Assembly: GCF_001949145.1 (NCBI RefSeq)
Contig: NW_019091362.1
Span: forward strand, 1 to 64,000
Origin: Acanthaster planci
Lineage: Eukaryota
DNA length: 64,000 nucleotides
Direction: 5' to 3'
Of the stretch, positions 8,852-44,035 are shown piece by piece. The notes below the pieces were generated by a model. That model was given only the letters and a program-made list of their open reading frames with translations. It was not told the origin of the DNA and searched no databases. The position numbers and the translations under genes are program-made. Within the stretch, counting starts at the first letter, position 1, and each line of letters opens with the position of its first letter.

Positions 8852-11800
8852 CTTGCGGCGTTCTGACCGGCTGCACTCTTTTATCAAGGCTCTTAGCTCT
8901 CGAACTTGTCTCTCCAGTTCACGTGCTTCCATGCCATCTGATGGGGACACCCTTGTTTTGTTGATTGGCAAAATGTGCTCTGGGTACGCCTGATTAAAGT
9001 TCCACTGAACTGTATCGTGACAAGACTCTTTACCCTTTGGTGTTACATTGTATGCAACTGGCCCATTCCAGCTGAATCCCAGGTAAAACGTCACAGTTTC
9101 TTGGCTGGGAGTGTGTTTCAAGTACGGATATGCCAATTTAACCCTTATCTTCATGCCCTTGGAAAGATGAACCAGAGAGGTATTACTGAGAAGAGTACCT
9201 TCCAAGCGAAGTAGTAATTTCTTTACAGCCTTTGACTGCCAGAAATTGTCATGTTCAAGCTTTCTTTGAGTCGCAAGGATTTCGTGGATGTGAACGAAAC
9301 TCTGGAGATCTTTCCCGTGACCCAAAAAGAAATGGGTTCTTGGTTTCACATCAAAACGTGCGTGACGACTAAACTTGTCTTCGCGCGACGATTGTTGGCC
9401 AAGGTGCTTCTGCCGACCGATCCATCGGTTCTGTAATCTATCTATGTGAGTTGATAAATCTTCCCTATCCCTTCTTTCAGAGATTGCATCAGGTATTGGC
9501 CACAGAAACATCATCATGAAGAAAGGTGGCCAGCAGTCAGTTTTACTATGATCCAGAGTATTTAACGGCCTGACAAATTGCTGATATACCTCGTCAGCTG
9601 ACATTACTTGCTCCCCTGCTGAGGAGAGCGCCAGGTGTATGCATACAAGATGCCTCAAATCAAAAACGTTGTAATGATCTGAATTTGTCAAAAGGAGGTC
9701 CCGTGCTTCTTTCAGATTGGCCCTTTGACATTCTTTTGCCAGATTAAATATGTCACCAAAACTTCTGCACTGCAGTTTTATTACCNTTTCTTCGACGGCA
9801 CTCAGCAAGACTTTCTGGGTCTTGGTCGATGTCACTGCTCTTTTCTAAAGGTGAGGGTTCACCATAGTATTCTTGATATGTCTTTGAGTATGTTCTCATT
9901 TTTTCTCTCATTTCATCCAATTTCTGTCCGGCAACATTTGCAGAAGAGCCGTCCTTGTAAAATGTTAAGTTGTCATCCATGATATGTAGTACAGATTCCA
10001 CTCTCTGTTTCAATTCTCTGATTCTCGAGCTGCAATCCTCATCGAATTTGGGATAACAATCTGGAGGCAGACGTAGATTCAGGAGGTATTTTCGGAGAAT
10101 GTTTATATCACCCTTGGTTCGGAATGGCTCCATAGCACATTGGATGACGTTTAGTAGTCTGAAGGCGACATCCACTTCTGCATATAAACCGGTGTACTCT
10201 GTCTTTGCATGGTTTCTTTGGAGACATCATATGACTTGTGAAAGGCCTCCATGGCTTGGAATGACAGGGAGATAACTTGTTTACACACGTCAGAAGAAAG
10301 GACTTGTTGCTCAACCAAATATTTTTTTGTTATGGCATTGAAATGTGTATTGTACACTCGGCCTTTTGTATCCCAAAAGTATGACTTCTGAGGGTTAAGT
10401 TTCAATGCCTTCTCGGCAAACTCTACGGCCTTTCCGAAATTCTTTTCTTTCAAATGAAGTCTCGCAAGCTGCTGTGCAATGAAGGCATCCTGGAGTATTT
10501 TGAAACCTGTTTGTAGTATTTCAGTGGCCTTTTTTGGTCCTTGCTGGTTGCAATTGTAGACGTCCTGAATGAGACGGGAGAAATCAGTTTTTGTATTATC
10601 ACCAGGATTCAATCTTGTGCGTCTTACAAGTAGATCGCGTGCTATTTTTGCCATGTCTTTTCTGCGGTAGGACCATGACCTCATCAAGTCACTGTTCAAA
10701 TACTCCAGAGCTACGTCCGCAATCGTTTGTCTCTCATCCTTTAAGATCTGTTTTAAAGCTTCTTGAGCTACACTTTCATGCAGAATTTTAATCGTTCGGT
10801 TCTCTGTCATCAACACGATGATTTTGAAAGGGGCTGAAACTGACTTTTCCCAATTAGTCAAAACTCTGCGGTTTAAATATGCCGTCTTTTGGAGTTTCAC
10901 GCCAGCCTCCATGAATGAATCACAACATGAGATAGGGATTTCTGCTTCATGCATGTACGAGTTCAGAAAGGCACACATTTTTATCAAACCTTTCTCAGTT
11001 TTGTTAGCATCACTGTGACGAAGTATCTGAGACACAACATCTTTGATGTAGTCCTTGTTGAATTCCTCTTTCATGACCATAAAGGCGAGCAAGTTCTGAG
11101 GCTTATAATGACCCGTTTTTAGTTTGCTTTCCTTGTCATCAAGCTCAATGTACTTACTCTCGAACCATGCTCTTTCTGCTTCCGTAAGTTTTTGCACCAA
11201 TGGAACATAAAGATCCGAATTGGTTTTAATCTGCTTGATAGTTTCTATTGGATCCATGTTCCGCTTGCAATGAAGAAGAACGCAGACAACCCCTCCCTTC
11301 ATAGGAGTATCCTTTGATGCCTCTTCTAGCTCTACAATTAAATCCAGGACTTCAACGTCATCAAAATCATCGATTAGAACGCACACAGGAGGGATATCAG
11401 CATTGTACTCCGTATATCCGTACCGTCTACACCCCAATATTTGGTTTACCGTATTGGTGGTTATCTTGTCAACTACGATGCAACGGTGATCCTTGTGAAG
11501 TTCCCATAAAATCTGTCGGCCAAAAGTGCTACCTCCAGCGCCAGGTTGGTGCAAAAGAGTAACTGTTACGATTAAGCTGTCTTCGCTCTTTGATCGGTCA
11601 AGTGGTTTCACTACTTTCTGAAGTGTTTTCCCGAATCCATTTCGCTTTAGCACGTGCCCACAAGCATGTGGACGTTTTCTTTCTCTTTCATCTATGACAA
11701 AATTCCACCAGTCAATCTTTGCACCCCGGTAAAAGTTAAGTTCTTTCTTTTCTGCAAACTTTTGATAGCCTTGAATTGATTCATCAACATCGGTGTTTTC

Positions 11801-14800
11801 GCACTCGTTTTTGCAAATAACGGTTATGTCATTCCATTCTTCCTTCTGTTTAGCGGGAAGAAAGCAGGAATTTCCCGGCAAGCAGAAAGGGAGTTCATGC
11901 TGCCCAATTTGGTTTACTGCATGCATTCGCATCATAATACGGTTGATATCTTGCCATTTCAGTCCAACCACACTCCTCTCATCGATTTCAGCCTTGCTAA
12001 ACCACTTTTCCACACCTTTTACAAACTGTGCGTAAACATTCTCATCTTCAGTGATACATGTTATGTTCTGTATGCCTTGGAAAGATGAAGACATTTTTCT
12101 GAAAATGTCACAAACGATTCCCAGGTCCTGATCGGACAGGAGCAAGAACACAATAGCAGCACGTCCTTTTGGTATAACCGAAGAGAAGAAAGAGATTGAT
12201 GCTTCTACATCTCGGCTACGTTCTTTGTTCCATTCTTGCAGATCCATGGGAAGGCTTTCAATGGTTGGGTTGTCCTCTCGCCCGTTAGCGAAAAGCCAAA
12301 GTGTCTTTTCAGGAAATCCGATACTGGTTTGTAGATCTTCTTTTGACTCGATGTTTTTGAACAAATTTGGTTGCTGCAGAGTGACCATTCTATTGTCATG
12401 GTAGAGCTTACACAGTCCATCCGACAGAGACTGTGAATCAAAGTCCAAGACGCTTGCCCATTTGATTGTCTTAATAAATTCAACATTTCGGAAGTATTCA
12501 GTTTTAGAACTCTCCAAGGAAAGAGAGGGAGCTTTGTTTGCAACCAGTAACGGATACGACTGGTCAAGTTCTCCACACTCATCGCCCGTGAGTAAAGTAC
12601 GAAGTCTGGTTTCTCCGTTCTGTGATACTTGACCAATGGACGCTTTGATATCTGACGGAATATCGCGCTGTGTTTGCAAATATGTTGACGTTCCATGATG
12701 TTCTTCGTTATACTTTTTGGACGGCTGGGGCTCTGAAGTCATCTGGTTTCCAGGAAACTCTCCGCTTGTTTTGTGTGACATGGCCTCACTTGGTGAATCC
12801 GGAGAAAATTGAGGTGGTTTTACCCTGCAAACTGAAATACTCTCTCTTGGCACTGGAGAAAATGTTAGCAATGTGGTATCTTGTTTGCTCTTGCTTTCAC
12901 CTTCGTTGGTAGCCAATGGGTTCTGAAATGGTGTTATTCTATCTTCGGGTGGGATAATTATATCTGCCTCTGTGGATTCTTGGCCTCTGTTCTCTCCATA
13001 CAGTGCCCTTTCTTCCTTCTCAGATGCTTTTACAAGGGATGTTTGATGTTGCTCACTTGGTCCAATCTGCTTAATTTTCGTCTTCCTACCCGCCTCATCT
13101 TTCTGTCGAGAGGACGGCATTTTTGGACGGACCACGGGTTGGGATGCTGCCTTGGTATGGAGTTTTTCAGGTTTTTCAACAACTGCATCAGCTAATACCT
13201 GATCAGAATCCTCTTTGCTTTCCCCAGTAGAAGATAGCAACATTTGCTTACTGTTTGAAGGAGAGGTCAATTGACGCTTTTCCGATTTCAACCAGTTATC
13301 TTTATGATGTAAGATGAGTCTTATGTGCCCCTTTCTCATATCAAAATCTTCGTGTAGTTGGTCTTTGTTGTATATTTTTAACTCCTCACCGTTTATCTCT
13401 TCCTCATACAGCTCACGTGCAACAGAATCTGGTACACCAATACCAAGAAGCCACATTTTTACATGCTCCTTAGTCCAATCTGACATACGTACAGGCAACG
13501 TCTCTTGTTTTAGAGTATCTGCAAAAATAGTTTACATGAAATTTGGTTTTCGTGAAGAACATAGCATTCAAGTTATGCAACTTTGAATAATTTTGAAGAT
13601 AATTAAATACGACAGAGCCTAGTTTATGAACTGCTTTCAACCATTTCAATTGTAAGTGTGCGGAAATGACATGAGAAATTTGGCAATTCCTTTTAATTCA
13701 AGCACATTTAAATCACTAAATGACATAAAATTCTGTCGCAATTGTTGCAAGTGTGGACCCCACTCTGTGCATCAGGTATTAATTCTGAATACTTTCATAA
13801 CTTAGATATTTTCAATATGAGCGATTCCTAATACGGTGCGCAAAGAAGCGTTTGCCGCAGACAGGCCACTTTTCAAGTTCATGATCGACTTGCTACCGCG
13901 ATTAAGCGCAATTCATACGTATTTTGGGAATATTTGATTGAGGCGCTCCCTACACAACAAAAAAAAATCATGTTGACTACCTAACACCTATTTGCTATTA
14001 ACAGTTTCCAATTTTCAACCAAGATCAACAAAAATTCAGAAACAATTCAAGTTTTCTGCCCAAAGCGCAGTTAGCGAATGAGTTTTTTGACTATTTGTCT
14101 CACTATGCAATGCAAAAAGGCCTGTCCATGACGACCTCTTGGTTGCGTACTGCATTGTGAATCGCCTTTAGTAATAACATCATATGCTTTTTACCTCGTC
14201 TTTTAACAGTCAAGTAAAACAACTTGTATGAGTGACAATACGTTATTCACCCCTTTCGACATCTTTTCGACTGCAAATTTACCTTTTTGTAACTTTTCAA
14301 AGAATCTGCAACCTTCCTGGTAATCACTTTCAAGTATTGTCACTTTGATGGCCATGTTGCTCTTGTCTTCCGTTGTAAGTTCATCAGTAATCAGAATCTC
14401 GGTGAACGTCTTGGCTAGTTCGCCACTGGTGTACATGTTCCACAGCTTATGCAGACCTTTCTGACTTTTGACGTGCAAAACAAGTTTCACAGACCCCATT
14501 TGAGCATGTGCAACCTCCGCGTCGAATTCAACAAAAGCTTTTGTGAAAAGGGTCATCATGTGGGTCTTGCCATGTTGCCGTAATCCGTGTTTTATCATTT
14601 GCACGATTGTTGCATTGCTTTCTCTGTGGGTCTCTCCATTTTTCATTGCATCGACATCTACTGGTATCTTTGCTGGAAAACGTAATAAGTTAATTAATTC
14701 ACAGTTAGAAATTTGTGATAACGTGAATGCTCCAAAGCAATATTCATTCAATATTCATCAAATGTGTGTTTAATTTGCCATAAACAGCGGTACCGTAGTT

Positions 14801-17800
14801 AATCTGGATATTCGTAGTCGGAAATTGTTATTCAAGGAGGGTTGGCACAGGTTTATGGAGTCGGCAAAAAATTGTCACTAATTGAAACTGATATTAGTAT
14901 ATTTTAGTTTGTTAGTTTAGGTAAACTTACACCTAGATTTGTGAAAAATATACCCACAGTAAACAGAACATCAACAATGTTTGGAAACATATTGGTGAGA
15001 CTGCCAAATATTTCGAAATATCCAGCATGTACCGTAGTTAAACGAAGAAGCAACTGCGGGGCCAAGTATAATAGGGCTATTGGTGACTCCTTTAATGGTC
15101 AAGTTTTGAATTTGAACGCTTGATTGTGTAGGCCTGTTGGGATCAGCAGCATAGCCGCTCGTCGAAGACGATTTCTGAGACAATGAGGGGCTTTCTTCAC
15201 CAGCTGAGACGTCTTCCTGCGTTGGCTTTCGTTCAGGTTCCAGTCGCTTTTCTGTAGAATGCGTGAACCAAGTGAAACATTGAGTGAAAACAACACAACA
15301 ACAGATTTAAATGGCGCAACATGTGACCTTAAAAATAAACTGTTACAGTGAAAGCACATTATAATTTCGATTAACCTACTGCACTCGACATTTCGATTTA
15401 AAAGTTTCTGGGAATGCCTATCAACAGCATGGACACCTGGTGAAGATGATATCTGATATGCTGAGGAGTGTTCTTCAGATGCCCAGGCATCTTCTGACGT
15501 TAGATTTTGTTTAGGTTCCTGTTGCTTTTCTGTGAAACAATAAGAAGGAAAGCAGTGAGTCTTAATTGAAGCTCAGCTTAATATTCAGTAACTCTTAAAA
15601 ATACAAGGATTTTTTGATGCGCGGAGTGTAAGAGAAACTTTGAGTTTCAACAAATTGGTGCGCATATTTTGTGGCCACTTTAAAAAAAAAACAAATTAAA
15701 CCCATACGACATGTTTAGATAATCTAAATTAAAACGCTTTGAGAAATGCTGAGCCGATTTCACAAAGCTGGATGTTACCATGGAGAAGTATCCGGTTTGT
15801 CATTTAAACACATCCCTGAAAGCGCTTCGAAAAAATCTGGATACAAAAAAAGTGTGAACCTGTTGTGCTATTTCCACAGCGTGTAATTTCACAAAATGTG
15901 AATAAAGACTTACATGTAGTTCAGATAAATTCATAGCACAATGTGTTAACATTTAATCAATTTTGTTTTCCTGTTGTCCTAACTTCAGTGGAGTTCATTG
16001 AATATGTCAATGCCATGTTCAGGTAGCGTGGCGTATCTTGGTCTTTAGGCTACGAGGGATATGAGGCAAAACGGGATATTTTTCCCCAAAATAAATTTCC
16101 CATATTTTCACAGTTAAAAGAGCCCTCATCCTCCCCGTGGTAATACTACTTCATATGCTAGCGCTTTCCATTCCGAGAAAAAAGTGGAAGCAAGTCTTCA
16201 GGGGAACTTACCCCACCCCTCTCCTCTGAATATGGGTCATCAATGCATTTCTATTACCGAGTGATTGTTTCTTAGCATGCGATATGAGGCATTAGGCCTA
16301 CCTGATTTTCGTTTCTTTTTTCTCCCACCCATCAATCCAGAAACAAGGCGCAGTTCTATGGTAGCGTCATGTTCAATGCTGTGATCAGCTATGGACAGGG
16401 CATCACAAAGCTGTACATCAACAGAAATGCAATGACAGATAAAACATCAAGCACATGTTCAAAGGTAAGCACAAAGAACGGACTTCATGAAGACATAAAG
16501 CGTTAATTGAAGAAAAATTTTCCACTTTAATGAAAGACTGACATATTTTGCTTGACGTACCTCACAAATTTCTATTCTTCCCCATAGAAAGTTTGCACGG
16601 CTGCCATCTTGCAGGGCAGTTCTTTTGTTCCACAGTGTATGCACAAAAAGAAGTTTCCATGTGGAACAACACACCTGCCCTGCAATATGGCTACCAGGCA
16701 AATCCTCTATAGTGTAGAAAACTCCGGAAAGGAGTACGTGTTTGAGTACATTTGTAATACGATAACGCTAACATACCATGCTTTTTATCACGCCGCCTCA
16801 GGTAATTCTTAGAGGAATATCATTTTAAAATCATCATACAAACTAGATATTTGTCATCACAGAATCCAAATTGCATATTGAGAAAACAGCAACACAAGGA
16901 AAGGTCCTTCGAACAGTGTAAAGAGGAGTCTTTGGTATAAATTAAAAACAAGCCCTGTGTGTAGTGAATGTTGTACACATTATGCATTTCATATTCACCT
17001 CAAGGCCTTTACGGGTGAATAAATGTTGCTTCTCAGAATCGATGCCAAGTCTCTCTTGTAACAATCTCTTAAGATCAGCGACTGAGGTGGACGGACGCAG
17101 TTGCAGACAGATAGAGGATGCCCAAGAAGTGGAAATGAAGATTTGGATCTTCCGTGTTTTGGTGCTTTGACTGGAACTAGTAAGGTGATAGTGGAAACAC
17201 AAAAAAATGAAGGATATACATGTATCTTCTTAAGTTGAAGCTGAATATGCAAACGCATAAATGCACATGTGAAAAATGACGTAAGNNNNNNNNNNNNNNN
17301 NNNNNNNNNNNNNNNNNNNNNNNNNNNNNNNNNNNNNNNNNNNNNNNNNNNNNNNNNNNNNNNNNNNNNNNNNNNNNNNNNNNNNNNNNNNNNNNNNNNN
17401 NNNNNNNNNNNNNNNNNNNNNNNNNNNNNNNNNNNNNNNNNNNNNNNNNNNNNNNNNNNNNNNNNNNNNNNNNNNNNNNNNNNNNNNNNNNNNNNNNNNN
17501 NNNNNNNNNNNNNNNNNNNNNNNNNNNNNNNNNNNNNNNNNNNNNNNNNNNNNNNNNNNNNNNNNNNNNNNNNNNNNNNNNNNNNNNNNNNNNNNNNNNN
17601 NNNNNNNNNNNNNNNNNNNNNNNNNNNNNNNNNNNNNNNNNNNNNNNNNNNNNNNNNNNNNNNNNNNNNNNNNNNNNNNNNNNNNNNNNNNNNNNNNNNN
17701 NNNNNNNNNNNNNNNNNNNNNNNNNNNNNNNNNNNNNNNNNNNNNNNNNNNNNNNNNNNNNNNNNNNNNNNNNNNNNNNNNNNNNNNNNNNNNNNNNNNN

Positions 17801-18864
17801 NNNNNNNNNNNNNNNNNNNNNNNNNNNNNNNNNNNNNNNNNNNNNNNNNNNNNNNNNNNNNNNNNNNNNNNNNNNNNNNNNNNNNNNNNNNNNNNNNNNN
17901 NNNNNNNNNNNNNNNNNNNNNNNNNNNNNNNNNNNNNNNNNNNNNNNNNNNNNNNNNNNNNNNNNNNNNNNNNNNNNNNNNNNNNNNNNNNNNNNNNNNN
18001 NNNNNNNNNNNNNNNNNNNNNNNNNNNNNNNNNNNNNNNNNNNNNNNNNNNNNNNNNNNNNNNNNNNNNNNNNNNNNNNNNNNNNNNNNNNNNNNNNNNN
18101 NNNNNNNNNNNNNNNNNNNNNNNNNNNNNNNNNNNNNNNNNNNNNNNNNNNCCATGAGTTCATGGAAAAAGTATGTATTATGTTCTCCCGCTGAATTGTT
18201 ATAAGTCTTAGTGACTAGACATTTTACTCGCTAAAAATATATATTCCGCGGTGGTTGCAAATACAACTGCATGGCAATGCTTTGATGATGTCAAACGACA
18301 TCGTACTAAAAATAAGTGCTGAGGAATTGCTGTGATCAGAATAAAAACTAATGATGTTGATCCATTTTGCTCTTTGTTTGCAGTCACCAGTTCTTAGAAC
18401 AGCACCTTCTTGCGCTTCTTGCTATATGAAAGTGCATTCGATGGATCAATAGAACTGCACTGAGTGTACCATGCTGAGATGCTGTTTGACTGACACTTCT
18501 GAGAATGGATAGGCTAAATCAAGGGCGATATTTTACTTCAAGTACGAAAACTACGAGCAATTGCAAAAAAGGACTGGTGGCTATATCACCCAATTAACAA
18601 TTGAAGTTAACCTTATTTTATTTACCTGCGTTTAGAATTTAATACTGTTGCTTGTGTATTCTGAGCACCAGGCGACGTTGGAGTTTCAATTTCTGATGAG
18701 GCATTATTAAGAGGGCGTTTCGTTGACAGCACTGAGAGAAAAGCCTTTTGCTTAGACTTCCGAACACCTTTCGTTCCGGTTACCAACTTGGCCTGCGAGT
18801 GGTCATAAGTGACCCGGGCGACCCTCACCGCCTCCTCCCAATCTGCATATGTCTTCAAAGTCAT
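8852..18864 (-). CDS. SAMD9-like: SAMD9-like STAND NTPase gene A. Exons: 18864-18626, 17176-16999, 16410-16302, 15529-15437, 15251-15033, 14672-14283, 13518-8852; terminal exon unresolved. Two apparent frameshifts (~10210 and the n at 9786).
   Basis: SAMD9 motifs: LLTGD..LD..Y.LLVANK, IKWASVLDFD, WLFANGR, ICKNECE, FYRGAKIDWWNF, P-loop HQPGAGGST..QILWEL, Walker B VLIDD, FMVMKEEFNKDYI, AFIAQQLAR, SYFWDTKG, VTFYLGFSWNGPVAYNV. All junctions are GT-AG with compatible phases (2,0,1,1,1,1,0), and every exon except 15529-15437 has a counterpart in gene B. Confidence 0.88.
13300..13498 (-). other. SAM domain of gene A
   Basis: DWTKEHVKMWLLGIGVPDSVARELYEEEINGEELKIYNKDQLHEDFDMRKGHIRLIL fits the SAM pattern W..E.V..WL..IG...EEI.G..L. 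Confidence 0.85.
14283..14672 (-). CDS. Gene A exon encoding a TRADD-N-like domain
   Basis: AEVAHAQMGSVKLVLHVKSQKGLHKLWNMYTSGELAKTFTEILITDEL; phase 1-1 exon homologous to 38165-38551. Confidence 0.65.
16302..17176 (-). CDS. Gene A exons 2-3 (17176-16999, 16410-16302) encoding a ubiquitin-like domain ending LMGG
   Basis: IQIFISTSWASSICLQLRPSTSVADLKRLLQERLGIDSEKQHLFTRKGLE|LCDALSIADHSIEHDATIELRLVSGLMGG-RKKKRKS aligns along ubiquitin. Confidence 0.85.
18626..18864 (-). CDS. Gene A first coding exon
   Basis: MTLKTYADWEEAVRVARVTYDHSQAK... is homologous to 35317-35561; cag|gtaaat donor, phase 2. Confidence 0.8.
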
Positions 18865-19374
18865 GTTGGGTTGACAGGAGCAGACTGATTATTTGTAAGT
18901 TCCTTAAAAAGGAAAAATTCAATACAATTTCAAATTACTACACGCACGATTGCATTCTGGGAGTTTAATAGGTCAAAGATACACTGCTGCTATCTGTTCA
19001 TTGCAGCAAAAAAAAAAGAAAAAAATATGGGCAAGACAATCATACATGCTGAATACAGTCCATTCCCTTTCGTAAGAGAGGCGGGACAGCCTTTGGTCAC
19101 ACATCATGTGATCTGATTGTTTTTCTAAATGCTGCACATGACCCAGCCAAGCCCCCGTGACTTCTCCTGAACCCTCGTGCTGCTACTTTTGGAGGGGGTT
19201 CAATCTTGGGATCACCCCAGGCAGTCCCTGAAGCCAGCCGGAAACATCCCCTGTCCGATTATCTTAGCATGTGTTTGCATACACAATTCCCACTGCACAT
19301 GATTGTGAAGAAAATACCCTCTCCCTTATTGTACATGTACTAGTGAATCAGGCCAGTGAATTGAGACCAATGAG

Positions 19375-31519: not shown

Positions 31520-31790
31520 AATCAAGAAATTAACAAAATAACTAAATCAGGCTTAGCTGTGATCTTGATCTTGCTTGATCCAACTTGACCATTGGACATG
31601 GGTGCCGCTCCAAATCCTTGGTAGTCCTTCGCTAGGTCAAGAGACTCACAGATCCAGCGTGGTGAAGGGGAAAAGGGTCTAAGTGAAGACGGTAGAGAGA
31701 CGAACCGGGTCGGCTCCCGAAAGCGACATGACCTATGGGCAAATACCCTGCACCAACAGAGCACACAGGTCTGNTGGTCGGGGGGGCATC
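31520..31790 (-). mobile_element. Possible decayed DIRS-type tyrosine recombinase fragment
   Basis: Across frames, RPVCSVGAGYL...GSRPGS and LDLAKDYQGFGAAP weakly recall CPV.AL..YL..RG..PGPLF and Y.GHSFRIGAAT. Confidence 0.25.
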
Positions 31791-31899
31791 CAATGTTGCA
31801 TTAAAGGCTGGTGCACGGCGAGGGCAAACCATTGCAACATTGGAATGGGGGGGTGGTCGATGGGGGGGGGCAAACTACCCAAGTCTGTGTTAACACTCA

Positions 31900-33061
31900 C
31901 TGTGAAATGTTTCAAAACATGGCATTAGACACATTGGTTTCTGGCAATTCTTACAAATCATACGAGTCTGCTTACAACACAGTTTCGTTTTTGGCCTTGC
32001 CTACTTCTTCCGGGATAATGTCCATTTGAAAGGAGTGCAGTTTCAGGGACATATGGTGTTGAGTTGCTCGTCCTGCAGGCGGACAACAGTTCAGCGATGA
32101 CCTGGACCCGGAAATCCAAGCTAGTGAGCAGGCGCTTTGTGGGGATGCTGTTGAACACGATGGTAGCTCTCACCAAACAGATTTGCAAAGAAAACGCGTT
32201 TCCACCATTTCAGGGATCTATGATGATACGTGTAGTACTGACACATTTTGTGAATCTAAGTCACTTCCGGCCATGTACTCATTATAATCGTTGACGACGG
32301 CAGGTCTTTGGATTGTACGACGTCCAGTGGAACTTGTTTTGCAATAAATGTCTTCAGCGTCACTTTTGCAGTCGTCATAATTAGTCAGAACTGTTACACG
32401 TTTTTTGGCATCCTGCCAAACAACGCATAGTTGCCCCGCTTTGAAGAAAAACTGGGGTGGATCATGTCGGTTCATTGGGACCTTCTTAGGTCTACTGTTT
32501 GGAATGCCTTGTGTAGTATAGTGCAGTTCCACGAGCTCCAAAGCCTAGCTGGGACAACTTGTGCACAAGAGCGGGGCTAGTGTAACAGTTGCCCATGAAA
32601 ACAACACGTCCCTTGCTTTCCAGTCCTTTCAGTAGGTCGATGACAACTTGGCCTGATGCTGTAAGGTTGGATGGATGGCTGGCTTCAGCATACGCAACAG
32701 AGTGGGGGATAATATGGTCCGATGGAGCCTTGGATCCAGTAGACACCTTCCAGTCACATGTATAACCGGTTGCAGACTCGATCAAGGAAAAATATTTCAA
32801 GCCATATTTGGCCGACTTGCTTGGTATGTACTGTTTAAAACCGAGTCGACCATTAAACTTTATCATAGTCTCATCCGGTGAGAGGTTTCGTCCGGTCTTA
32901 TAGATGCTACGAAACAACGGAACTACAATGTCCAGTAGCGGACGAAATTTAGACAGTTTGTCACGGGAAGATTCGTCTGCTGTGTTGTCAGCAAGGTGGA
33001 GAAATCGAAGGAGTGCCATAAATCGGTTGCGAGACATTGTCAACGGATACAAATGCTCCAT
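31900..33061 (-). mobile_element. Degenerate piggyBac (PGBD-type) transposase
   Basis: MSRNRFMALLRFLHLADN, DKLSKFRPLLD, LSPDETMIKFNGRLGFKQYIPSKSAKYGLK, VFMGNCYTS (catalytic D replaced by G), WQDAKKRVTVLTN, PAVVNDYNEYMAGSD, SLKWWKRVF and a Cys-rich tail; several frameshifts. Confidence 0.9.
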
Positions 33062-33444
33062 ATTTTTGGTAGCCTTGTATTTCTGACCAACAATTCATAA
33101 ATTGACTTTAAATTATAGGTTCGTTCTATTGGAAGCTTTACTCAAAACTAGAGCAAGTTCAAAAATACCTGCCGTGTTGGGATACAATTGTGACTCCTGC
33201 AATTTTCTTTATAATTTCCGTATATATATATCAAGGAATGAGGTTTGAGACACATAAACTGGATTTGATGTGATTATAAGAATTCTTATTTATTAAACCT
33301 CCGATTCAAACAATCCCTTTCAAGTTAGTCTTTGCGGATGATTGTTTTGTTTGTAACACAACCGTGTTTAGCAGTACTACCGCGGGATACTCCTACTCCC
33401 TCCCGCTTGTGCTCCTTCATTACACGATTTTTACATTCCCGTTG

Positions 33445-33848
33445 CTGGGTGCATTCCACCAAATGGTTGTATTTCTGCGTGCGAGCTCATTAGTATTTTG
33501 TGATCCCACGAGATTTTATAGTAAGACACGCCATAATCAGGAGGCATCATAGAAATATTTCTATAAATCCCGAATTTGGGACTGATAGATTCCAGTTCGG
33601 GGTATTTCTTTCACAAAAAGCCACAAATTGCGGGCCTCTTTTGGATAGAGCCTGGCGGCTACATTCAGAAATGAGCGCTTAGTTTTACTGCTGTTTTGGG
33701 GGTATCTTCCTTGAAAGAGGAATAAAAAAATTTTCGTGACTAACTCCCATGAAACTAAAACGAAAAGTGATCTTCTGGCCATAATCTTGAATTTCCAATT
33801 AAAAAAACGGGGGCCAACCTCTTCATGAGAGTCAACAGGCGGCGCTTA
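33445..33848 (-). repeat. Dispersed repeat, inverted copy of ~54130-54535
   Basis: catcatagaaatatttctataaatccc...ggccaacctcttca is reverse-complementary to 54130-54535. Confidence 0.85.
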
Positions 33849-34104
33849 TTTGGTGTATAGTGCAACCTGCTGGCATTTTGGTCTATGTGCCAATGAGGAA
33901 CATTGGTAACAAAGTGACACTGAAATTGTAGCCTTAGAAATGTCCGCTACATAATAGGATTTGATCCCATTGTGAATGCACCACGATTAATTGAAGTTAT
34001 AATAACATGAGACAGACATTAATTTATTCAGTTTAATGATTGATGACAAGCACAGATGAGTTTGATGATATGCACAGAGATGAAGTTGTGAACTATTGCT
34101 GGTA

Positions 34105-35260
34105 TCCATCCATCCCATCCCTCCCTCCCCTCCCATCCCTCCCATCCCTCCCCTCCCNNNNNNNNNNNNNNNNNNNNNNNNNNNNNNNNNNNNNNNNNNN
34201 NNNNNNNNNNNNNNNNNNNNNNNNNNNNNNNNNNNNNNNNNNNNNNNNNNNNNNNNNNNNNNNNNNNNNNNNNNNNNNNNNNNNNNNNNNNNNNNNNNNN
34301 NNNNNNNNNNNNNNNNNNNNNNNNNNNNNNNNNNNNNNNNNNNNNNNNNNNNNNNNNNNNNNNNNNNNNNNNNNNNNNNNNNNNNNNNNNNNNNNNNNNN
34401 NNNNNNNNNNNNNNNNNNNNNNNNNNNNNNNNNNNNNNNNNNNNNNNNNNNNNNNNNNNNNNNNNNNNNNNNNNNNNNNNNNNNNNNNNNNNNNNNNNNN
34501 NNNNNNNNNNNNNNNNNNNNNNNNNNNNNNNNNNNNNNNNNNNNNNNNNNNNNNNNNNNNNNNNNNNNNNNNNNNNNNNNNNNNNNNNNNNNNNNNNNNN
34601 NNNNNNNNNNNNNNNNNNNNNNNNNNNNNNNNNNNNNNNNNNNNNNNNNNNNNNNNNNNNNNNNNNNNNNNNNNNNNNNNNNNNNNNNNNNNNNNNNNNN
34701 NNNNNNNNNNNNNNNNNNNNNNNNNNNNNNNNNNNNNNNNNNNNNNNNNNNNNNNNNNNNNNNNNNNNNNNNNNNNNNNNNNNNNNNNNNNNNNNNNNNN
34801 NNNNNNNNNNNNNNNNNNNNNNNNNNNNNNNNNNNNNNNNNNNNNNNNNNNNNNNNNNNNNNNNNNNNNNNNNNNNNNNNNNNNNNNNNNNNNNNNNNNN
34901 NNNNNNNNNNNNNNNNNNNNNNNNNNNNNNNNNNNNNNNNNNNNNNNNNNNNNNNNNNNNNNNNNNNNNNNNNNNNNNNNNNNNNNNNNNNNNNNNNNNN
35001 NNNNNNNNNNNNNNNNNNNNNNNNNCCCCTCCCTCTCTCCCATCCCATCCCTCCATCACTTCCATTCCATTCCATCCCTCCTATTCCATCCCTTTCATTC
35101 CATCCCTTCCATTCCATCCCTTCCATTCCATCCCTTCCATTCCATCCCATCCATTCCATCCCATCCATTCCATCCCATCTATTCCATCCCATCCATTCCA
35201 TCCCATCCATTCCATCCCATCCATTCCATCCCATCCATTCCATTCCATTCATTCATTCAT
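34105..35260. repeat. (CCATC/CCATT)n pentamer satellite spanning an assembly gap, just upstream of gene B's first coding exon
   Basis: Directly visible on both sides of gap 34158-35025. Confidence 0.9.
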
Positions 35261-35316
35261 TCACACACACCACATGCTGCAAAAATTTACTGATATTAAG
35301 AATCCATCATTGCAGT

Positions 35317-38300
35317 ATGGCTTTAAAGACGTATGCAGACTGGGAGGATGCTGTGAGAGTCGCCCAGGTCACCTATGACCACTCGCAGGCTAAGATGGTC
35401 ACAAAAACAAAGACGGTACGGAAGTCGAGGAAAATGGCTTTCCTCTCCGTGCTCTCACTGACCAAGGGTGGCGTTTCATCAAAGCAAAGCATCAACAAGC
35501 ACCCCACTTCTCCGCCAAAGAGGATAAAACAAAGAGTGAACAAATCCGCAGGAAAGATGTGGTATGTGTATATTTATTAAGGTGATATTATGAGGAAAAG
35601 AACCCCGAATGTTTTACAAGCATCGTGAAAAATTGTAATAGACGTCCTCTATGATATTTAATCTTCCCTTGGTGAACAGATCTATGACGCCGATCGTCAA
35701 CAGATTTTCCTGTGCTCTTAGCACAAAAGTCATTAAAGTGAATACTTGCTTTTGCAACTTTAACTGGCTTAATATTAAATTGTGCGCACGGTTGGGCATT
35801 AAATGTGTTGGTTTCTTACCTTTTCCTGTCCAGTGTGAAACAGGGAAGTGCGTGCTGCATACAGATAATAATTGATACTCCACTCGTGTCAACAGTTTGC
35901 CTGCAACTTCCTTCTTCAACCTCGATTCTAGCTGTGAAAGAACTACTTCAAGATAGGCTTGGAATCAGTCCTGAAAAACAACATCTTTGTACGAAGAGAG
36001 GATTTGAGGTCAGTGACAAAAACACAGTATACCATGCAATTAGTGCAGTTAGCAAATAATTTCGGTTTAGATCACTTTGAGTTTCTATTTTCAATAACTT
36101 CAGTATTTCCTATGCAAGCTGCACGAATTAGATGGGGTGTTATGTCAGTGGATTGAATATTTTTTGACTTAATACAATCAATTCTATTCAAACTGAAGTA
36201 GGCCTTTGGCTTCTAACAGCTGTTGCCATTGTGTAGCGGGTGCTCTATATCACCTGTGCATAAATCACATCTTCAATAAATCTTTAAATATCTTGCCGTC
36301 CCTATTTATTCAATGTTATCATGGCCTACGTGACAGTTGGTCTTTTTCGTGTGAACTGTCTTTTTCGACGGTGGTCTTGCAATCCCGCTACTGTTTATTG
36401 TTCTAAATGCACCCTCAACCCATTAAATTTTATTCGCAAAGAAACCACAGGAAAAGGTAGTAAGCTTGTACCCAATTGCTGGTCTAGACTTATACCCTAC
36501 TCTGCTGCCAAGGCCTTCTCACGCGCGTATATAAAAAAAAAAATTGGACTTGCAGTGCCTTGAATCAGCTTTTCGAGATCACTGAATCCAGTTACGGTCA
36601 CTTTACCTAGCCGAATACAAGGCTTGCCCGGCAATGCCCGCCTTTGTTCTCCCTTGCGTCAATAGAAGCGAGCCAACCCGCACATTCGTATTCGGCTCGG
36701 TAAAGTGGCCGCTTTTTCATACAAAGGCGTAGCAAGTCCAGGTTTTTATATACGTCCATGGGCTATCTAGAATTACCCAGTAACGTGCCTTCTGGAAAGC
36801 CACAAAGCTTCAAAGAAGTCCAACAGCATTTACAGGGTCGTTTATGGGTCACAGGCAGGGTCTGGGCAAGCTAGGCAGCGCTTGTGTGAACAACCTTGAT
36901 GACTGCCATCTGGAAGATGTTTGTACACATTCCCATGGGAATTGGCCAGACCCCAGCTCGGTTATATTTTTTCTGGCTAAGGGGAAGCCCCTATGTTTAC
37001 GGTGACTAAACCAGGCAGTTCGGCATGAAGGTAGGATATGAAAGGAGGTGATCATAGTTGGCCGTAAAATTTTCTTTCATCAAGTAATTAGCAGAAACTC
37101 CGTCTAAAAAAAGACGGTGGGCGCTCCACGCAGGGTTTCAAAAGTAATAATAATAGCTACATATATTTGTTATTTCTGGAACCAGCTCTGTGACGCACTT
37201 TCACTAGCGGATCACAGTATTCAGCAAAATGCCAACATAGAATTGCGCCTTGTCTCCGGCTTGATGGGTGGAACACGTTAGTATCCATTTACATTTTTTC
37301 AGTGTTTGCTTTAAATTGACTTTTAATGATTAATTTTGCTGTCAGGATACAAATTAGTTGTATTTTGAAGAGTAAGGGCACATCTCTTGCTTCAGAATAT
37401 GCAGACATCAGACGTAATATGTTCAGCCTCCCCTGGAAAAGATGTTGTGTATAATTTAGTTGTTGATCAATGTGACAATGCAGGGAAGCAAAAAGACAAA
37501 GCAGAGCAGCGGTCACCAGATTTTTCGAGTAAAGAAAGAATCCCTGATCATGGAAGACAAGATGATACTCAGCAAGACCCAACTGCACCTGATGAACAAC
37601 CATCATCCTGTACCAGCAACACATGGGAAAACACCGTCATGCAGGGCCACTCAGAAGGCATCACATTTGGGGAAGTACACTCACGTACCAATGTCTATGG
37701 TATGTATGTAGGGCCTATGTGTGCTTAAATTTAAAGATCTAAATTTACATAAGATGTAATACAGGAGAAATTATCGTTCACTAATTGATAGAGTTCGTCC
37801 GACATTTGAATTATTGCAACTGTCAAGTGCACTATTTCGATATCCAAAATAGGAGCTATCTGACGTATAATATGACCATAAAAATGTGGAGAAACTGAAA
37901 GGCATTTTCCGGTAAAATAATTTCAACGGCCAGTTTCCTTTGTACAGTAAGCAATAAATGTGCCTCTAAAATAAGCATGAAGCTTTATGATTATGACCAC
38001 GTGTTGGCTACTTATTCAAGAAAAGTTATATCTGTTTCTGAACCACACGATTTTGTGGTCGCACATCGGGAGGAAACAAAAAATTAATTTTATACAATTC
38101 TTCAACCTCAGAGCAACACTCTTTTGCACAGATTACTGAAGCTAAATAACTATTATTTCAACAGCATTACCAATTACTGCATGCGTTTCAAGAGATGACA
38201 GGATCGATGATTATTTGACAACAGCCGTAATCGATACCCTGAAACTACTGGCAAGTCAGTCTGGAGTGAATGATGTGAAAAAAATGTTCAACGACGTTTT

Positions 38301-41300
38301 GGAGGCATGTGCCGGAGAAATGTATCGAGTAGAGTTTGGGCCCTTGAGGTTTATTACGCATGTCGAAAGTCGTGCCGGCCTTGAAAAACTGTGGGCTATG
38401 TTCTCCACCGGGGAGCTCGCGCAGAAGCTAACTAAGGTCCTAATAACAGATGAACTTACAACAGAGGAGAAAAGTAGTATCGTCATTCAGGTAGAAATAC
38501 TTCGAGAACATTACGAGGAGGGATGCCAATTCTTTGAAGAATTACCAGAAGGTACAAACATATATTTTGCATTACGCGTGTGTTGCAACATTTTAGGACA
38601 AGTGACATTGGTTATTAGTATCAATTGAAAACAGAACCTTTGATTCAGAAGGAGATGAGTCAAATGGCATTGGAAATTTCGTCCCAGTATGTTAGACTTT
38701 CCAATTTAATTTGCGTTTCGAGTTCTGTTTTTCAAGCTCTAATTTGTTTCCATTTTAGAGACTACTTCGGCGGATCAACCGGTGCATATGTCTGAGTGGT
38801 CCAAATACGACGTGAAACACTGGCTAAAAACTATTGGTGTATCAGATGTGGTCATTGATAAAGTATTCGACGAGGCAATTGACGGGAGGGTGTTAATCTT
38901 GTATACATCAAATGATCTGCAAGAAGATTTCAACATGAACAAGCGAGACTTACGTCTCATTTTGTACAAACGGGAAGCCTTAAAACGCCAACCCAAGTTG
39001 AGTCCAAACCCAAAAGAGAAAGAAGTTGTTGAGTACAAAGCAGAACGTGCACTGGTTCAAGTACATCCGATTCAGACATCCCCAAGCCCATCTGACACAA
39101 AAACAAATCAAACTGTAACCGATATGCCAGAACTGTCAGTTCGGCCTAAAATACCAAAATCCAAAGCGATATCTTTACTAAAGAGGGGGCATCTGGAGAC
39201 AAAACACACTCAACCAGTTCAACGTCTTCATCAGAATATCGCTAAGGTACCCAACGTTCAAGATGACCCCTTAAACCCTGCAAAAGGATTTGAACTTTCT
39301 TTAGATTTACCTTCTGAATATAAAGGAGCCCATGTTTCACCACAAAGACTATTGACAGCCAAAAGTGGGCAAGATCCTCTTGAGGTGACTCAAAAGATGA
39401 TGGAATTAATTTCACTAGCTCCTCAACCATCTACAGACAACCAACAACAAGATGTTGCATTCATGATACTTGGCAAATCTCGAGCCCAAGAACAGGGGTC
39501 AAATCCTTCCTTACAGGTCAATTACCCAGAACAATATCGCGACGAAAATGGAAAATTGACGCCAGGGGATCATGAAGCAAGCTCAATTTCGCCTACTACA
39601 CTGGATGCATCACCGAGAACAAATGTGGAATTTGACGATGCACAAATTCATGATGACAAAAACTCTGACAAGGTAAAAGAGCAAGCTCGTGATCAGGGAA
39701 CACCATCACAAGCGTGTCGAAACGCAGCATCGTCCAGCAAATTTGCTTTGCCTGTAACAAAGTTCAGTCAAAGTGACGAAGCTAAGGTTCGCTTACTTCT
39801 TACAGGAGATGAACGTGGAGAGCTTTCCCAATCGTTATACTCCGTTCTCGTAGCAAATAAGCTGGACGCCCCAAGTGAACCTACTGAATCTAGAATTGAC
39901 ATCATTGCCCAACAGTTTGAATTCATCAAGTCCATCAAATGGACAAGCGTCTTGGACTTTGATTCACAGTCTCTGTCGGATGGACTGTGTAAGCTCTACC
40001 ATGAGAATAGAATGGTCACTCTTCAACAACCGGACTTGTTCAAAAACATCGAGTCAGAAGAAGATCTGCGAACCAGTATCGGATTTCCTGAAAAGACACT
40101 TTGGCTTTTCGCTAACGGTCGAGAGGACAACCCAACCATCGAGAGCCCTCCCATGGATCTGCAAGAATGGAACAAAGAACGTAGCCGAGATGTAGAAGCA
40201 TCAATCTCTTTCTTCTCTCAGCCTTCGGTTATACCAAAAGGACGTGCTGCTATTGTGTTCTTGCTCCTGTCCGATCAGGACCTGGGAATCGTCTGTGACA
40301 TTTTCAGAAAAATGTCTTCATCTTTTCAAGGCATACAAAATATCACATGTATCGCTGAAGATGAGAGTGTTTATGCACAGTTTGTAAAAGGTGTGGAAAA
40401 GTGGTTTAGCAAGGCTGAAATCGATGAGAGGAGTGTGGTTGGACTGAAATGGCAAGATATCAACCGCATTGTCATGCGAATGAACGGTGTGAACAAAATC
40501 GAAGCCTACGAACTCCCTACACACATTCCAGAAAAGTGTTTCCTTTCTGAGAAACAAAAGGACGAATGGAATGATATAACCGTTGTTTGCAAAAATGAGT
40601 GCGAAAACACCGATATGAACGAATCTAACCCGGGTTATCGACGGTTTGCAGAAAAGAAAGAATTGAACTTTTATCGCGGTGCCAAAGTTGACTGGTGGAA
40701 TTTTGCCATCGGAGAAAAAGAAATGAATCTTCATAGACGTTGCGGCCACGTGCTGAAGCGAAAAGGATTCGGAGACGTACTAAGGAAAGTCCGTAAACCC
40801 CTGGACAGTTCAAATACTGAGGACAGTTTAATTGTCACTGTGACACTCCTTCATCAGCCAGGTGCCGGGGGTAGCACGTTAGCACGCCATATTTTGTGGG
40901 AGCTCCGCCAAGAATTCCGTTGTATTGTCGTCAACACGGTCACTGGCAATACTGCAAGTCAGATAATGGAGGTGAGACGGCATGGATATGAAAAAGGTTG
41001 CAATCAGAAAATCCCTGCTGTATGTGTACTCGTGGATGACCTCGATGATGTTGAGCTTCTAGACTTGATTGATGAGGTGAAGGAAGTTTCTAGAGATATC
41101 CAGCTCGATGGTGGGGCAGTTTGTGTCGTCCTGCGCTGTAAGCGTTGTGCGGAGCCAGAAACGTTAACAGACGGTGAAAGGAGAGAGTTGTACATTGCTT
41201 TGACTCAAAAGCTTGACGCCCGAGAAAAGGAATGGCTGGAGCGAAAGTACCGTGAATTACAATTAAAGGAGAAAGAATTACAATCTACCGAGTACAAACC

Positions 41301-44035
41301 TGAACATCTCCTCGCATTTATGGTGATGCTGAAAGAATTCGACAAGGACTATATAACTCATGTTGTGTCGGAGATTCTTGGTGGAATCTCTGAGAACGAA
41401 TTCAAGTTGATAAAGCTATGTGCGTTTCTGAATTCCTACAGACCAGAGGCCGCCATTCCTATTTCCTGTTGCGACTCAATGATGGACAGAAAGATACTAG
41501 TCAGTGGCAGAACGCGTGTACACTCGAGACCCTGGGAAGGTTCAGTGTCCTCCTCGTTCAAGATCATGGTGGTCGTGGAAAACAACGAACTTAGGATCTT
41601 CCATGAGAGAATAGCAAAAGAAACTTTGGAGCAGATCCAGATGGTTACAAATCAGTCCCTTACAGAGGTTGCACTGGAGTTTTTGAATTGTGAACTGTTT
41701 AGTTCGTGGTCATATTCCAAAGAAACCCTCGTTAAAGCAACGCATGACCTACTTGTCAGGAGAAAAAGGATCCGATTCGGTGATGACACCGAGACAGACT
41801 TTGCGGTTATCATTCAAGATATTTACGAGAATCATGGACCTGAAAAAGCAATCGAGATCCTCCAAGTAGGCTTTGAGAAGCTGGAAGATGCATTCATCGC
41901 TCAGCAGCTTGCGCGACTTTGTCTTAAGGAGCACAACATTGGGATGGCACATATCTATGCTGACAAAGCAGTGACGCTTGAACCCCAAAACTGCTACTTC
42001 GTTGATACTAAGGGCAGAATTTACAAAACAGAGATGTGGGATATCGTGTCAAAGCGTATGGAAGAACAGCAAGTTATCGATGATAAAGAATGCGATAAGT
42101 TACTTTCCCTTGCATACCATGCAATGGACGCCTTCCACAAAACATACGACGTTTCTAAAAAAGGAAGGGAGATCGAGTACACGGGTTTGTATGCCGAAGT
42201 AGATGTTGCCTTCAGATTACTGCAGGTCATTTACACTTGTGTAGAGCCCTTCAGAACAAAAGGTGGACAAAAATATTTGCAGGAATACCTTCTGCAATTG
42301 ATCAACCCTTCAGATCCAAGCTATCCAAAACTGAGTGAAGACTGTCATGGCCGCATCATGACTTTGAAAAACCGAATAGACTCTGTGCTAAACTTACTTG
42401 ATGACACCTCAACATTCTGCAAGGGAGATCCCACAAATGAGCAACAGAAACTTGATGAGATGAAAGATCGCTTGAAGGAGTACTTCAGAATATACGAAAG
42501 ATACTATGGAGAACCAAAGCCGATACAACAAAATCGGTATCGAAATCCTAGAAGTCTTGCCGAATCTCGACGTCGGCAAGTCAAGCAAGCCAGTTGTGGT
42601 ACCTTTCGTGAAATATTTGACCTTGCTCGAAATAAGGGATTGCAGAAGCTCAAAGAATCTTACAAACTGCTGTTAGAGAACTCAGATCAGTACAACTTTT
42701 TCGACTTGAAGCATCTTGTTTGCATACACTTGGCGCTCTCCTCAGCTGGGGAGCAATTATTGCCAGCTGATGAGGTGTATCAGCAGTTTGTTCGGCCGTT
42801 GAATGCCAAAGATCACCGCAAAACAGACTGCTGGCCACCTTTCTTCATGATGATGTTTCTGTGGCCAATAGAGGATGTTACCTCTGAAAGACGAGATAGC
42901 TGTGATTTGACCTTTTACATTGATGAACTAAGAGAGAGATTTTCAGGTGCTGAGAATTTCAGGAAAGGTTTGACTAGCGAAAAGCGACCCCCGCGATTTC
43001 AGACAAGAGCACGAACACACTTTTTCTTGGGACAAGGCACAGATCTTCAAGTATTTGCCCATATCAATGAGCTCCACACTACTCCAGGTAAAATCGACGG
43101 AGCAGACAGCGAAGATGATTTTTGGTCGTCTGATCTTGTAAGAAGTCGATTAGCTCGCTTGGAAGGAACTTTACTGAATCCTACATCCCTGGTGCACCTC
43201 TCTAAGAAGGGAAAAATCAACATCAAACTGGCAGCGCCGTTTAAACGTCAAGTGCCAAGCCAAGAGATCGTCACGTTCTACCTCGGATTCACCTGGGATG
43301 GCCCAGTTGCGTATGATATTAAGGTAAAGGGGAAAGAATCTCGTGACGGTACAGCACCACGCTTTCACCAAGCTTACCCAAGTTTGAACGTACCTTCTGA
43401 AAAATCCAAGACTTCACTTTCCCGTAAGTTATCCAAGATTGATAAGCTTCGGGAGGAATGCCAAAAGCTGCGAGGCAAACTGGAGGGCGTAAAAGCTTCT
43501 TCTAAACACCATGTGAAAGTCAAAACCAAAGAGGTACCGGTAAATATTTTTCTATTATTAATCAGTCTATTTATAACTGGGATTTACTGTATGTCCAGTT
43601 CCGCACCATTTCCACCTCTCGACCATCGAACGTTGCTTGACTTGAATGTAGTGCACCTTCGGGTACCAAAGTGATAATCAATTAGCCTTATCTGTGGGAC
43701 TTCACGAACGGAAATCAGTGAATTCCTTCACTTTTTATATTTGGTAAAGACCTTATGAAACATTTCATTTCTTAATTTATTAATATAACACTGTCAAAAG
43801 AGATAGGCACGATACTTGTGTGTAAAAGCATTCGATAGATACACTGATCTTGTATACATTATACTCCATTACACAATGCCAAGCAAGAACATGATTTACT
43901 TACATCGTTTGGCAGGGATGTGTTTGGAAACCCACGAAAGACGCGATTCAGTTGTACAAGCGCCAGTTGGAGGAAAAAAACGATGAACTTCGTCGTGCTT
44001 TAATGGAAGACACGTCATCAACGGAGGACTTTTAA
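35317..44035 (+). CDS. SAMD9-like: SAMD9-like STAND NTPase gene B (~2000 aa). Exons: 35317-35561, 35834-36008, 37186-37276, ~37484-37699, 38165-38551, 38759-~43539, 43916-44035.
   Basis: Uninterrupted 1630-aa ORF with SAM (EWSKYDVKHWLKTIGV), IKWTSVLDFD, FYRGAKVDWWNF, HQPGAGGSTLARHILWEL, VLVDD, AFIAQQLAR and FYLGFTWDGPVAYDI. The exons join in frame (6015 nt, GT-AG). The exon 4 acceptor and the large-exon donor each have in-frame alternatives. Confidence 0.92.
35834..37276 (+). CDS. Gene B exons 2-3 (35834-36008, 37186-37276) encoding a ubiquitin-like domain ending LMGG
   Basis: IQIIIDTPLVSTVCLQLPSSTSILAVKELLQDRLGISPEKQHLCTKRGFE|LCDALSLADHSIQQNANIELRLVSGLMGG-T. Confidence 0.85.
38165..38551 (+). 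CDS. Gene B exon encoding a TRADD-N-like domain
   Basis: GEMYRVEFGPLRFITHVESRAGLEKLWAMFSTGELAQKLTKVLITDEL; phase 1-1 exon. Confidence 0.65.
43916..44035 (+). CDS. Probable terminal exon of gene B (GCVWKPTKDAIQLYKRQLEEKNDELRRALMEDTSSTEDF*)
   Basis: tttggcag acceptor; phase 0 matches the upstream donor; 40 open codons with coiled-coil-like composition. Confidence 0.6.
   Translation, partial: GCVWKPTKDAIQLYKRQLEEKNDELRRALMEDTSSTEDF

Follow-up and report, generated by a model that had tools for sequence, protein, structure and literature searches.

Two SAMD9-like genes of Acanthaster planci with a ubiquitin-like and TRADD-N front end and no detectable AlbA nuclease

The window analysed here is the first 64,000 nt of contig NW_019091362.1 of the sea star Acanthaster planci (RefSeq assembly GCF_001949145.1), read on the forward strand. 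Six-frame reading reveals two large SAMD9-like frames in divergent orientation. The frame of gene B extends from 38743 to 43671 (plus strand), and that of gene A, spread over three frames, from 13531 down to 8780 (minus strand). Both genes encode the same order of elements: a motif, a ubiquitin-like domain (Ubl) ending in LMGG, TRADD-N, SAM, a low-complexity linker and then SIR2-like, STAND, TPR and OB domains (Table 1). Gene B has seven coding exons and six introns, all GT..AG, with phases 2,0,1,1,1,0. Its spliced translation of 2002 residues is identical letter for letter to the collected protein P0001 (XP_022110147.1, named "SAMD9-like isoform X2 [Acanthaster planci]" in its source). A single 2255-nt contig of run X1, a run assumed to be RNA, links exon 1 with the SAM exon across all five 5' introns. 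Raw RNA-seq reads, from runs chosen by the same species label as the window (X13, X16 and X17), show five of the six introns with one to seven reads each and intron 1 with none; the last joint (43531-43914) is present in both reads and contig.

An earlier note, made from the letters of this DNA, had proposed that both genes splice in frame and with matching exon phases. The contig, the reads and the identity to P0001 confirm the splicing for gene B. Gene A has at least seven coding exons (phases 2,0,1,1,1,1), following the exon plan of gene B with one extra phase 1-1 exon. Five of its joints are cleanly present in transcript data, where they appear as CT..AC. The joint from TRADD-N to SAM is represented by a skip of 764 nt, equal to the predicted length, in four X13 reads and one X5 contig. 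This skip sits 4 nt off with other letters nearby, and its source may be an allele or a close paralog. The 5' exons are accordingly seen to reach the SAM exon in gene B and, less cleanly, in gene A, whose frame is also broken at two places discussed below. A last exon of gene A was looked for beyond 8852 and not found. Seven X13 reads and an X5 contig carry a joint from 15251 to 15425 with nine other letters (15251-15437 in the window, minus strand), which suggests that an allele or a close paralog has a different version of the linker exon.

The large exon encodes a SAMD9-type core, as the note had recognised. Gene B residues 692-1894 match the human SAMD9 cryo-EM chain 9zjr_A in one stretch (residues 233-1449 of 1450; E-value: 5e-98), with the SIR2-like, STAND NTPase, TPR and OB domains collinear. 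The P-loop of both genes is HQPGAGGST, and GG(T/S) in place of GK(T/S), together with an upstream His, is found in all 11 aligned proteins. SIR2-like, STAND NTPase with GG(T/S) P-loop, TPR and OB are likewise features of the SAMD9 family in the consulted parts of Mekhedov, Makarova and Koonin 2017 (PMC5445408). The Pfam domain SAM_2 falls below cut-off in gene B (E-value: 0.007-0.009) and above it in P0008; SAM is also assigned to the gene B protein in the source table of Kaur et al. (PMC8195603).

Human SAMD9/SAMD9L (9zjr, 9zjw and 37id) share with the sea-star genes this core of about 1200 residues and a SAM domain ahead of a disordered segment. They differ in what lies around it. In vertebrate-type SAMD9/9L an AlbA_2/Schlafen-like nuclease is located between SAM and SIR2, whereas no AlbA tRNase was detected in gene A or gene B by sequence. 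Residues 1-232 of the SAMD9 chain, which include its AlbA part, are left unmatched, and the SAM-SIR2 linkers of both genes have no PDB match at an E-value of 10 and no match to an AlbA family in Pfam. The hydrophobic share of the linker is 0.15-0.23, compared to 0.35-0.38 in the core, in every one of the 12 proteins whose linker could be measured, out of 13 examined, and the linkers of genes A and B are 16% identical. The sea-star proteins also have approximately 380 added N-terminal residues from five to six added exons, and do not retain the arginines of the human SIR2 interface. The vertebrate SAMD9/9L reading frame lies in one large exon, in contrast to the seven coding exons of gene B and at least seven of gene A. 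The note's idea of a module put in place of the nuclease can be kept as to the missing AlbA; the module itself lies ahead of SAM, and the AlbA position is taken by the low-complexity linker.

The Ubl and TRADD-N calls of the note are both supported by Pfam, folding and structure search. The Ubl of P0001 scores just under the Pfam cut-off (24.7 versus 25.4 bits), and those of two Patiria relatives pass it (P0003, 29.2; P0007, 26.0). In a model of gene B residues 1-179, the stretch of about 90-162 forms a confidently predicted beta-grasp, for which the best Foldseek match is a ubiquitin variant (E-value: 7e-9, root-mean-square deviation [rmsd] 1.4, 34% identity). TRADD-N (PF20694) is below cut-off in both window exons (E-values: 4e-4 in gene A, 4e-3 in gene B) and passes in P0011. 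One of five models of the gene B exon reached a predicted local distance difference test score of 83. When this model was compared with 48,161 chains (VIA), the best match was TRADD-N 1f2h (Z 7.2, rmsd 3.4, 99 aligned residues) and the next unrelated match had a Z of 6.0, such that its RRM-like alpha+beta fold is closest to TRADD-N. A search of the TRADD-N profile against the PDB by sequence returned no TRADD and three chance matches only. TRADD-N was assigned independently in the consulted parts of Kaur et al. (PMC8195603). The turn between beta2 and beta3 (the uS motif) is GS in gene A and most paralogs and GP in gene B; the serine replaced in gene B is the TRAF2-contacting serine in TRADD.

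The third domain call of the note, a RHIM-like stretch, was borne out only as a resemblance. The core of the RHIM consensus is (I/V)Q(I/V/L/C)G. This canonical core was found in none of 10 segments upstream of TRADD-N. What recurs directly ahead of TRADD-N is an alternating stretch with a Gly end, often followed by Asn-x-apolar. Two beta-arch patterns, both drawn up after the sequences had been seen, match five and six of the 10 segments (shuffle rates 0.3-15%) and none of 45 linker windows. The exons have no Pfam match, that of gene A has no PDB match at an E-value of 10, and genes A and B are alike in 5 of 26 residues of the stretch. The segments resemble the RHIM/cRHIM amyloid motifs of invertebrate immune proteins (Kajava et al. 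2014, PMC4262963) in being short alternating-hydrophobic stretches with a Gly end, often with Asn-x-apolar next, in a disordered region beside an adaptor domain. They differ in lacking the core and any Pfam RHIM or PDB match; GIQIGA and GVQVGD are examples of the core (PMC4262963). As far as these comparisons go, the likeness to RHIM is a loose resemblance only and not membership.

Table 1. Coordinates of coding exons and selected features of genes A and B in the window
Feature	Position	Strand	Content and evidence
Gene A exon 1	18626..18864	-	Head motif, basic linker
Gene A exon 2	16999..17176	-	First half of Ubl; Pfam ubiquitin E-value 6e-4
Gene A exon 3	16302..16410	-	Second half of Ubl, LMGG end at 16324-16335, then RKKKRK
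Gene A exon 4	15437..15529	-	Extra phase 1-1 linker exon, not in gene B; X1 and X5 contigs
Gene A exon 5	15033..15251	-	Linker and RHIM-resembling stretch 15061-15102; no Pfam or PDB match
Gene A exon 6	14283..14672	-	TRADD-N with conserved GS turn; Pfam PF20694 E-value 4e-4, below cut-off
Gene A large exon	8852..13518	-	SAM, linker, SIR2-like, STAND, TPR, OB; frame broken near 10204 and at N 9786
Gene A P-loop HQPGAGGST	11525-11551	-	Within STAND, large exon
Gene A gene-conversion tract	11940..12456	-	SIR2-like domain; counterpart of gene B 39944..40466
Gene B exon 1	35317..35561	+	48-residue head motif and basic linker; conserved in sea stars
Gene B exon 2	35834..36008	+	First half of Ubl; Pfam ubiquitin E-value 7e-4; joints in transcripts
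Gene B exon 3	37186..37276	+	Second half of Ubl, LMGG end at 37261-37272; fold matches ubiquitin
Gene B exon 4	37484..37699	+	Polar linker, then RHIM-resembling beta-arch stretch 37633-37671; no Pfam match
Gene B exon 5	38165..38551	+	TRADD-N, GP replacing conserved uS turn; Pfam PF20694 E-value 0.0037, below cut-off
Gene B large exon	38759..43533	+	SAM, low-complexity linker (no AlbA detected), SIR2-like, STAND NTPase, TPR, OB
Gene B P-loop HQPGAGGST	40852-40878	+	Within STAND NTPase, large exon
Gene B last coding exon	43916..44035	+	Contains stop; joint in reads and contig
Gene B gene-conversion tract	39944..40466	+	SIR2-like domain; 92-96% nucleotide identity to gene A

The head of both proteins consists of the exon-1 motif and the Ubl. 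The first 48 residues of genes A and B are 79% identical, with nonsynonymous and synonymous rates (dN and dS) of 0.13 and 0.75, respectively, and the next 40 residues cannot be aligned; on these rates the motif is under purifying selection. Its consensus contains HS..k and AFLS. It has no Pfam family and no Atlas match, and is modelled with a confidence of 48-66 as having one short helix. Of 184 candidates in a word-index search with residues 1-175, four proteins were hits; a set of 393 shorter ones gave none. A profile of motif plus Ubl was searched against 1.84 billion representatives, and 11 further proteins were selected among the best 150 matches for their match to the motif or to the sea-star Ubl; these 150 were crowded by multi-ubiquitin proteins, and motif carriers outside sea stars could be missed. 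A hidden Markov model built from the motif by itself matches 25 of the 179 collected proteins. The motif and Ubl head is carried by NACHT-LRR NLRs, Death+TRADD-N adaptors and short stand-alone models (including P0094, P0095, P0101, P0108, P0112, P0153, P0028, P0080 and P0156), and the 10 carriers whose records were checked all belong to Acanthaster, Patiria or Asterias. No treatment of the head motif or its di-glycine was found in the open literature searched, subscription journals being outside the scope of this and the other literature searches reported here.

The end of the Ubl is conserved. Among 24 proteins, one per gene, 19 have a Ubl; LxGG ends 20 of their 27 Ubl copies, with Leu at P4 in all 20, and at least one LxGG is kept in 18 of the 19. 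In six of eight two-Ubl proteins, LxGG is kept solely in the second copy. Such retention, especially in the second copy, would be expected of a head that is cut off, and the head is probably clipped off after LxGG. A conserved LxGG at the Ubl end is also the mark of SDE2/FUBI-type precursors. Known Ubl-fusion precursors (SDE2, cut by USP5 [PMC13572447]; FUBI-eS30; ubiquitin-eS31) similarly have an LxGG-ended Ubl within a longer chain, with basic residues next. In these comparisons, drawn from parts of the sources, the sea-star Ubl differs in its N-terminal extension of 88 residues, in a C-terminal part that is a 200-kDa immune-type NTPase and in having a cleavage that is predicted only. Alternatively, the Ubl may never be cut and may serve as a permanent interaction or proteasome-targeting domain, with the GG a relic of a ubiquitin ancestor. 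The internal position of the Ubl, with 88 residues ahead of it, and the loss of GG in 7 of 27 copies favour this, and the best single-domain PDB matches include ubiquitin-S27a fusions reaching into the basic stretch, which fits such descent. GG loss is almost confined to the first of two copies, however, while 18 of 19 proteins, drawn from three genera and three architectures, have GG with the P4 Leu invariant, and the flanking linkers diverge freely. For the head, to which this judgement applies, an uncut Ubl is possible, with the balance rather against it.

The note had also described the genes as a paired system. A distance of 16,453 bases, within which a transposase remnant lies, separates their start codons. 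A sensor/helper pair would be expected to consist of linked genes of different design with conserved linkage, but genes A and B are of the same design, and there are further paralogs elsewhere. Head-to-head linkage does not appear to be conserved because the Patiria orthologs, P0003 and P0004, are on records of different length (21.75 and 28.6 Mb); paralog number and synteny are drawn from protein records.

The two genes are related through their SIR2-like domains in a different way than through the rest of the core. A NOD-OB tree unites gene A with Patiria P0004 (98/98) and places gene B in a group with P0002 and Patiria P0003 (100/100). In a SIR2 tree, one group is formed by A, B and P0002 (92/91) and another by P0003 and P0004 (87/85, not starred). 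Each partition rejects the grouping of the other in the approximately unbiased (AU) test (p 7e-7 and 2e-4; trees exclude two long outgroup rows). At the DNA level, the SIR2-like tract is 92-96% identical between A and B over about 520 nt, with 21 differences, versus mostly 45-75% elsewhere. Codons for the same residue are identical in 144 of 157 cases in the tract and in 32-73% elsewhere. Assembly collapse was rejected as the cause: at every listed place (11 of 11 and 13 of 13), the variant letters read on one gene are those of the other, which shows that the reads contain both versions. Judged from the sequences, the tract is a product of gene conversion, and SIR2 homogenisation has apparently occurred separately in Patiria too. 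A second, weaker tract (83-85%) lies in the TPR region, near 42694-42870 in gene B and 9494-9670 in gene A. The third Acanthaster paralog, P0002 (XP_022081709.1), is a mosaic with gene A-like TRADD-N, SAM and linker and gene B-like NOD-TPR-OB (77-90%); the switch lies in or near the SIR2 tract. SAMD9 gene conversion was not found to be treated in the open literature searched.

The tract corresponds to gene B residues 766-940 and covers the positions aligned to Q514, R522, Q565 and R593 of the human SIR2/SIR2 interface. According to the consulted parts of PMC13600222, this interface is required for activation of human SAMD9. The tract may keep the paralogs able to co-assemble, or may merely mark the most convertible region. 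A reading built on the first option is that these proteins are effector-less sensors or regulators which co-assemble, via the homogenised SIR2-like surface, with a SAMD9-like paralog or separate effector, such that the output comes from the partner. Both the placement of the tract over the four interface positions and the grouping of paralogs by species in SIR2 but by ortholog in NOD-OB (AU p 2e-4 and 7e-7) are in its favour. On the other hand, Pfam finds an enzyme head in none of 11 sea-star relatives, of five aligned interface positions that were checked, three do not vary in any of the 11 paralogs anyway, and the SIR2 core is the best-conserved part and hence the easiest to convert. We regard a partner-supplied output as unlikely.

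The frame of gene A raises the possibility that it is a decaying pseudogene and that gene B alone is functional. In the window, an N at 9786 and two additional bases near 10204 shift the frame of gene A, and as assembled it stops after 1531 residues; without these three bases, 1964 codons are open. The N is missing from all four runs. The two bases are absent from the X1 and X9 contigs, but none of three X13 reads shows their absence, and run X5 has no depth there. The X1 contig without the two bases differs from the window in 91 of 2468 letters (about 96% alike), and so is maybe another allele or paralog. Against decay stand the otherwise open frame, a spliced transcript with a read depth of 5-20, dN well below dS across all folded domains and the existence of a Patiria ortholog (98/98). 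An assembly error is likelier than a null allele as the source of the frame breaks, and pseudogene status for gene A is quite improbable. That the SIR2-like domain is itself the effector, acting by depletion of nicotinamide adenine dinucleotide (NAD) as in bacterial Avs5 with a regulatory front end, is least probable of all: it is the sole enzyme-derived domain left besides the NTPase and Avs proteins do employ SIR2 in this role (PMC12680541, in part), but it appears collinear, with no large insertion, with a human domain that has no lid for NAD binding and for which such binding is considered unlikely (PMC13600222, in part).

Although the note put forward this architecture as perhaps undescribed, it is already in print, as is the central idea, and the finding is a rediscovery. 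XP_022110147.1 is tabulated as UBI+TRADDN+SAM+STAND+TPRs by Kaur et al. 2021 (eLife, PMC8195603, Fig. 4-source data 1). Their echinoderm proteins with TRADD-N (DEDD2 clade), SAM and STAND thus include the protein of gene B and its architecture, but the consulted table does not name the SIR2-like domain, OB, head motif or di-glycine; the main text has no occurrence of "SAMD9", "RHIM" or "SAM domain". For the SAMD9 family, the consulted parts of Mekhedov et al. (PMC5445408) report loss of AlbA_2 in some members, predict apoptosome-like particles and describe DEATH-superfamily adaptors (Death, CARD, PYRIN, FIIND) on fish and invertebrate members. Those parts differ from the present results in that TRADD-N is not recognised, there is no Acanthaster entry and the three supplements contain no ubiquitin term. 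In that work, hemichordate, oyster and brachiopod members have AlbA, and the urchin XP_003727489 is listed with SAM and SIR2 rows only. Because AlbA is not listed for the urchin member, AlbA loss and the TRADD-N-SAM front are likely to predate sea stars; the Ubl is likely an asteroid addition.

The reading towards which we lean is that genes A and B encode immune sensors which oligomerise and then signal by their clustered front end and not by tRNA cutting. The proposed model, largely by analogy with human SAMD9, is as follows. At rest, the STAND module would be closed and ATP-bound, and an infection cue would open the sensor. Assembly would proceed through SIR2/SIR2 and OB/SIR2 contacts (PMC13600222, in part). 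By analogy with TRADD and following Kaur et al., the clustered TRADD-N and SAM domains, perhaps with the beta-arch stretch, would recruit death or immune partners. A deubiquitinase-type protease may clip after LxGG, as conservation suggests, and removal of the 169-residue head would set sensor level, location or readiness. The consulted parts of PMC12015307 report that human SAMD9 binds double-stranded DNA without AlbA and that both oligomer formation and interferon induction depend on OB; sensing by a core that lacks the nuclease is therefore plausible. No experiment on the function of sea-star SAMD9-like proteins was found in the open literature searched.

Several points weigh against this model. 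The window TRADD-N exons are below the Pfam cut-off, one of five models is confident and its Z of 7.2 is within the range that VIA terms possibly common. Gene B has GP in place of the conserved uS of TRADD-N (38336-38344, plus strand). Since two Ubl-bearing relatives, P0003 and P0007, have no TRADD-N, the domain is either dispensable or was passed over when their genes were modelled. At the positions aligned to the human interface arginines R522 and R593, the residues are E and W. The Ubl tail (VSGLMGG past the last strand) exceeds the shorter tail of ubiquitin, and its cleavage is a conservation-based prediction. The apparent absence of AlbA stands on sequence searches and composition.

A broader and more doubtful proposal joins these observations. 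The 48-residue motif and Ubl-LxGG would form a protease-removable "immune head" common to sea-star SAMD9-like STANDs, NACHT-LRR NLRs and Death-TRADD-N adaptors. The cut after GG would be made by a host deubiquitinase or by a pathogen ubiquitin protease, for which the head would be bait. Cutting would arm the sensor and uncover the beta-arch/TRADD-N module; once released, the head, now ending in an open GG, may itself act as a modifier like ISG15. Through concerted evolution of the SIR2-like surface, paralogs with different TPR sensing halves would stay able to co-assemble.

Other elements lie in the window. A broken DDE transposase remnant (PF13843; E-value: 1e-34), which we take to be of piggyBac type, is located between the two genes at 32221-33094 (minus strand). 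A 1.3-kb stretch is duplicated at 48588-49853 and 51788-53080 (94% identity); its frames resemble reverse-transcriptase remnants by eye, two of them having no Pfam match. A subtilase (Peptidase_S8) exon fragment is found at 1313-1828 (minus strand; E-value: 2e-5). A 208-codon open frame at 71-694 (minus strand) contains a knuckle-like stretch, C-x2-C-x4-H-x4-C, has no Pfam match and is probably a retroelement gag remnant.

Disease events affect crown-of-thorns and other sea stars, whose intracellular sensors have, to our knowledge, been little studied. The shared LxGG head and the SIR2 homogenisation are testable and have no precedent in the open literature searched. Natural SAMD9 proteins that lack AlbA isolate what the SAMD9 core does without the nuclease, which bears on the interferon-inducing role of human SAMD9. 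The repeated homogenisation affects the domain that dimerises in human SAMD9. If true, the sharing of an LxGG head by three kinds of sea-star immune protein would connect the control of NLR and STAND proteins with ubiquitin-type processing.

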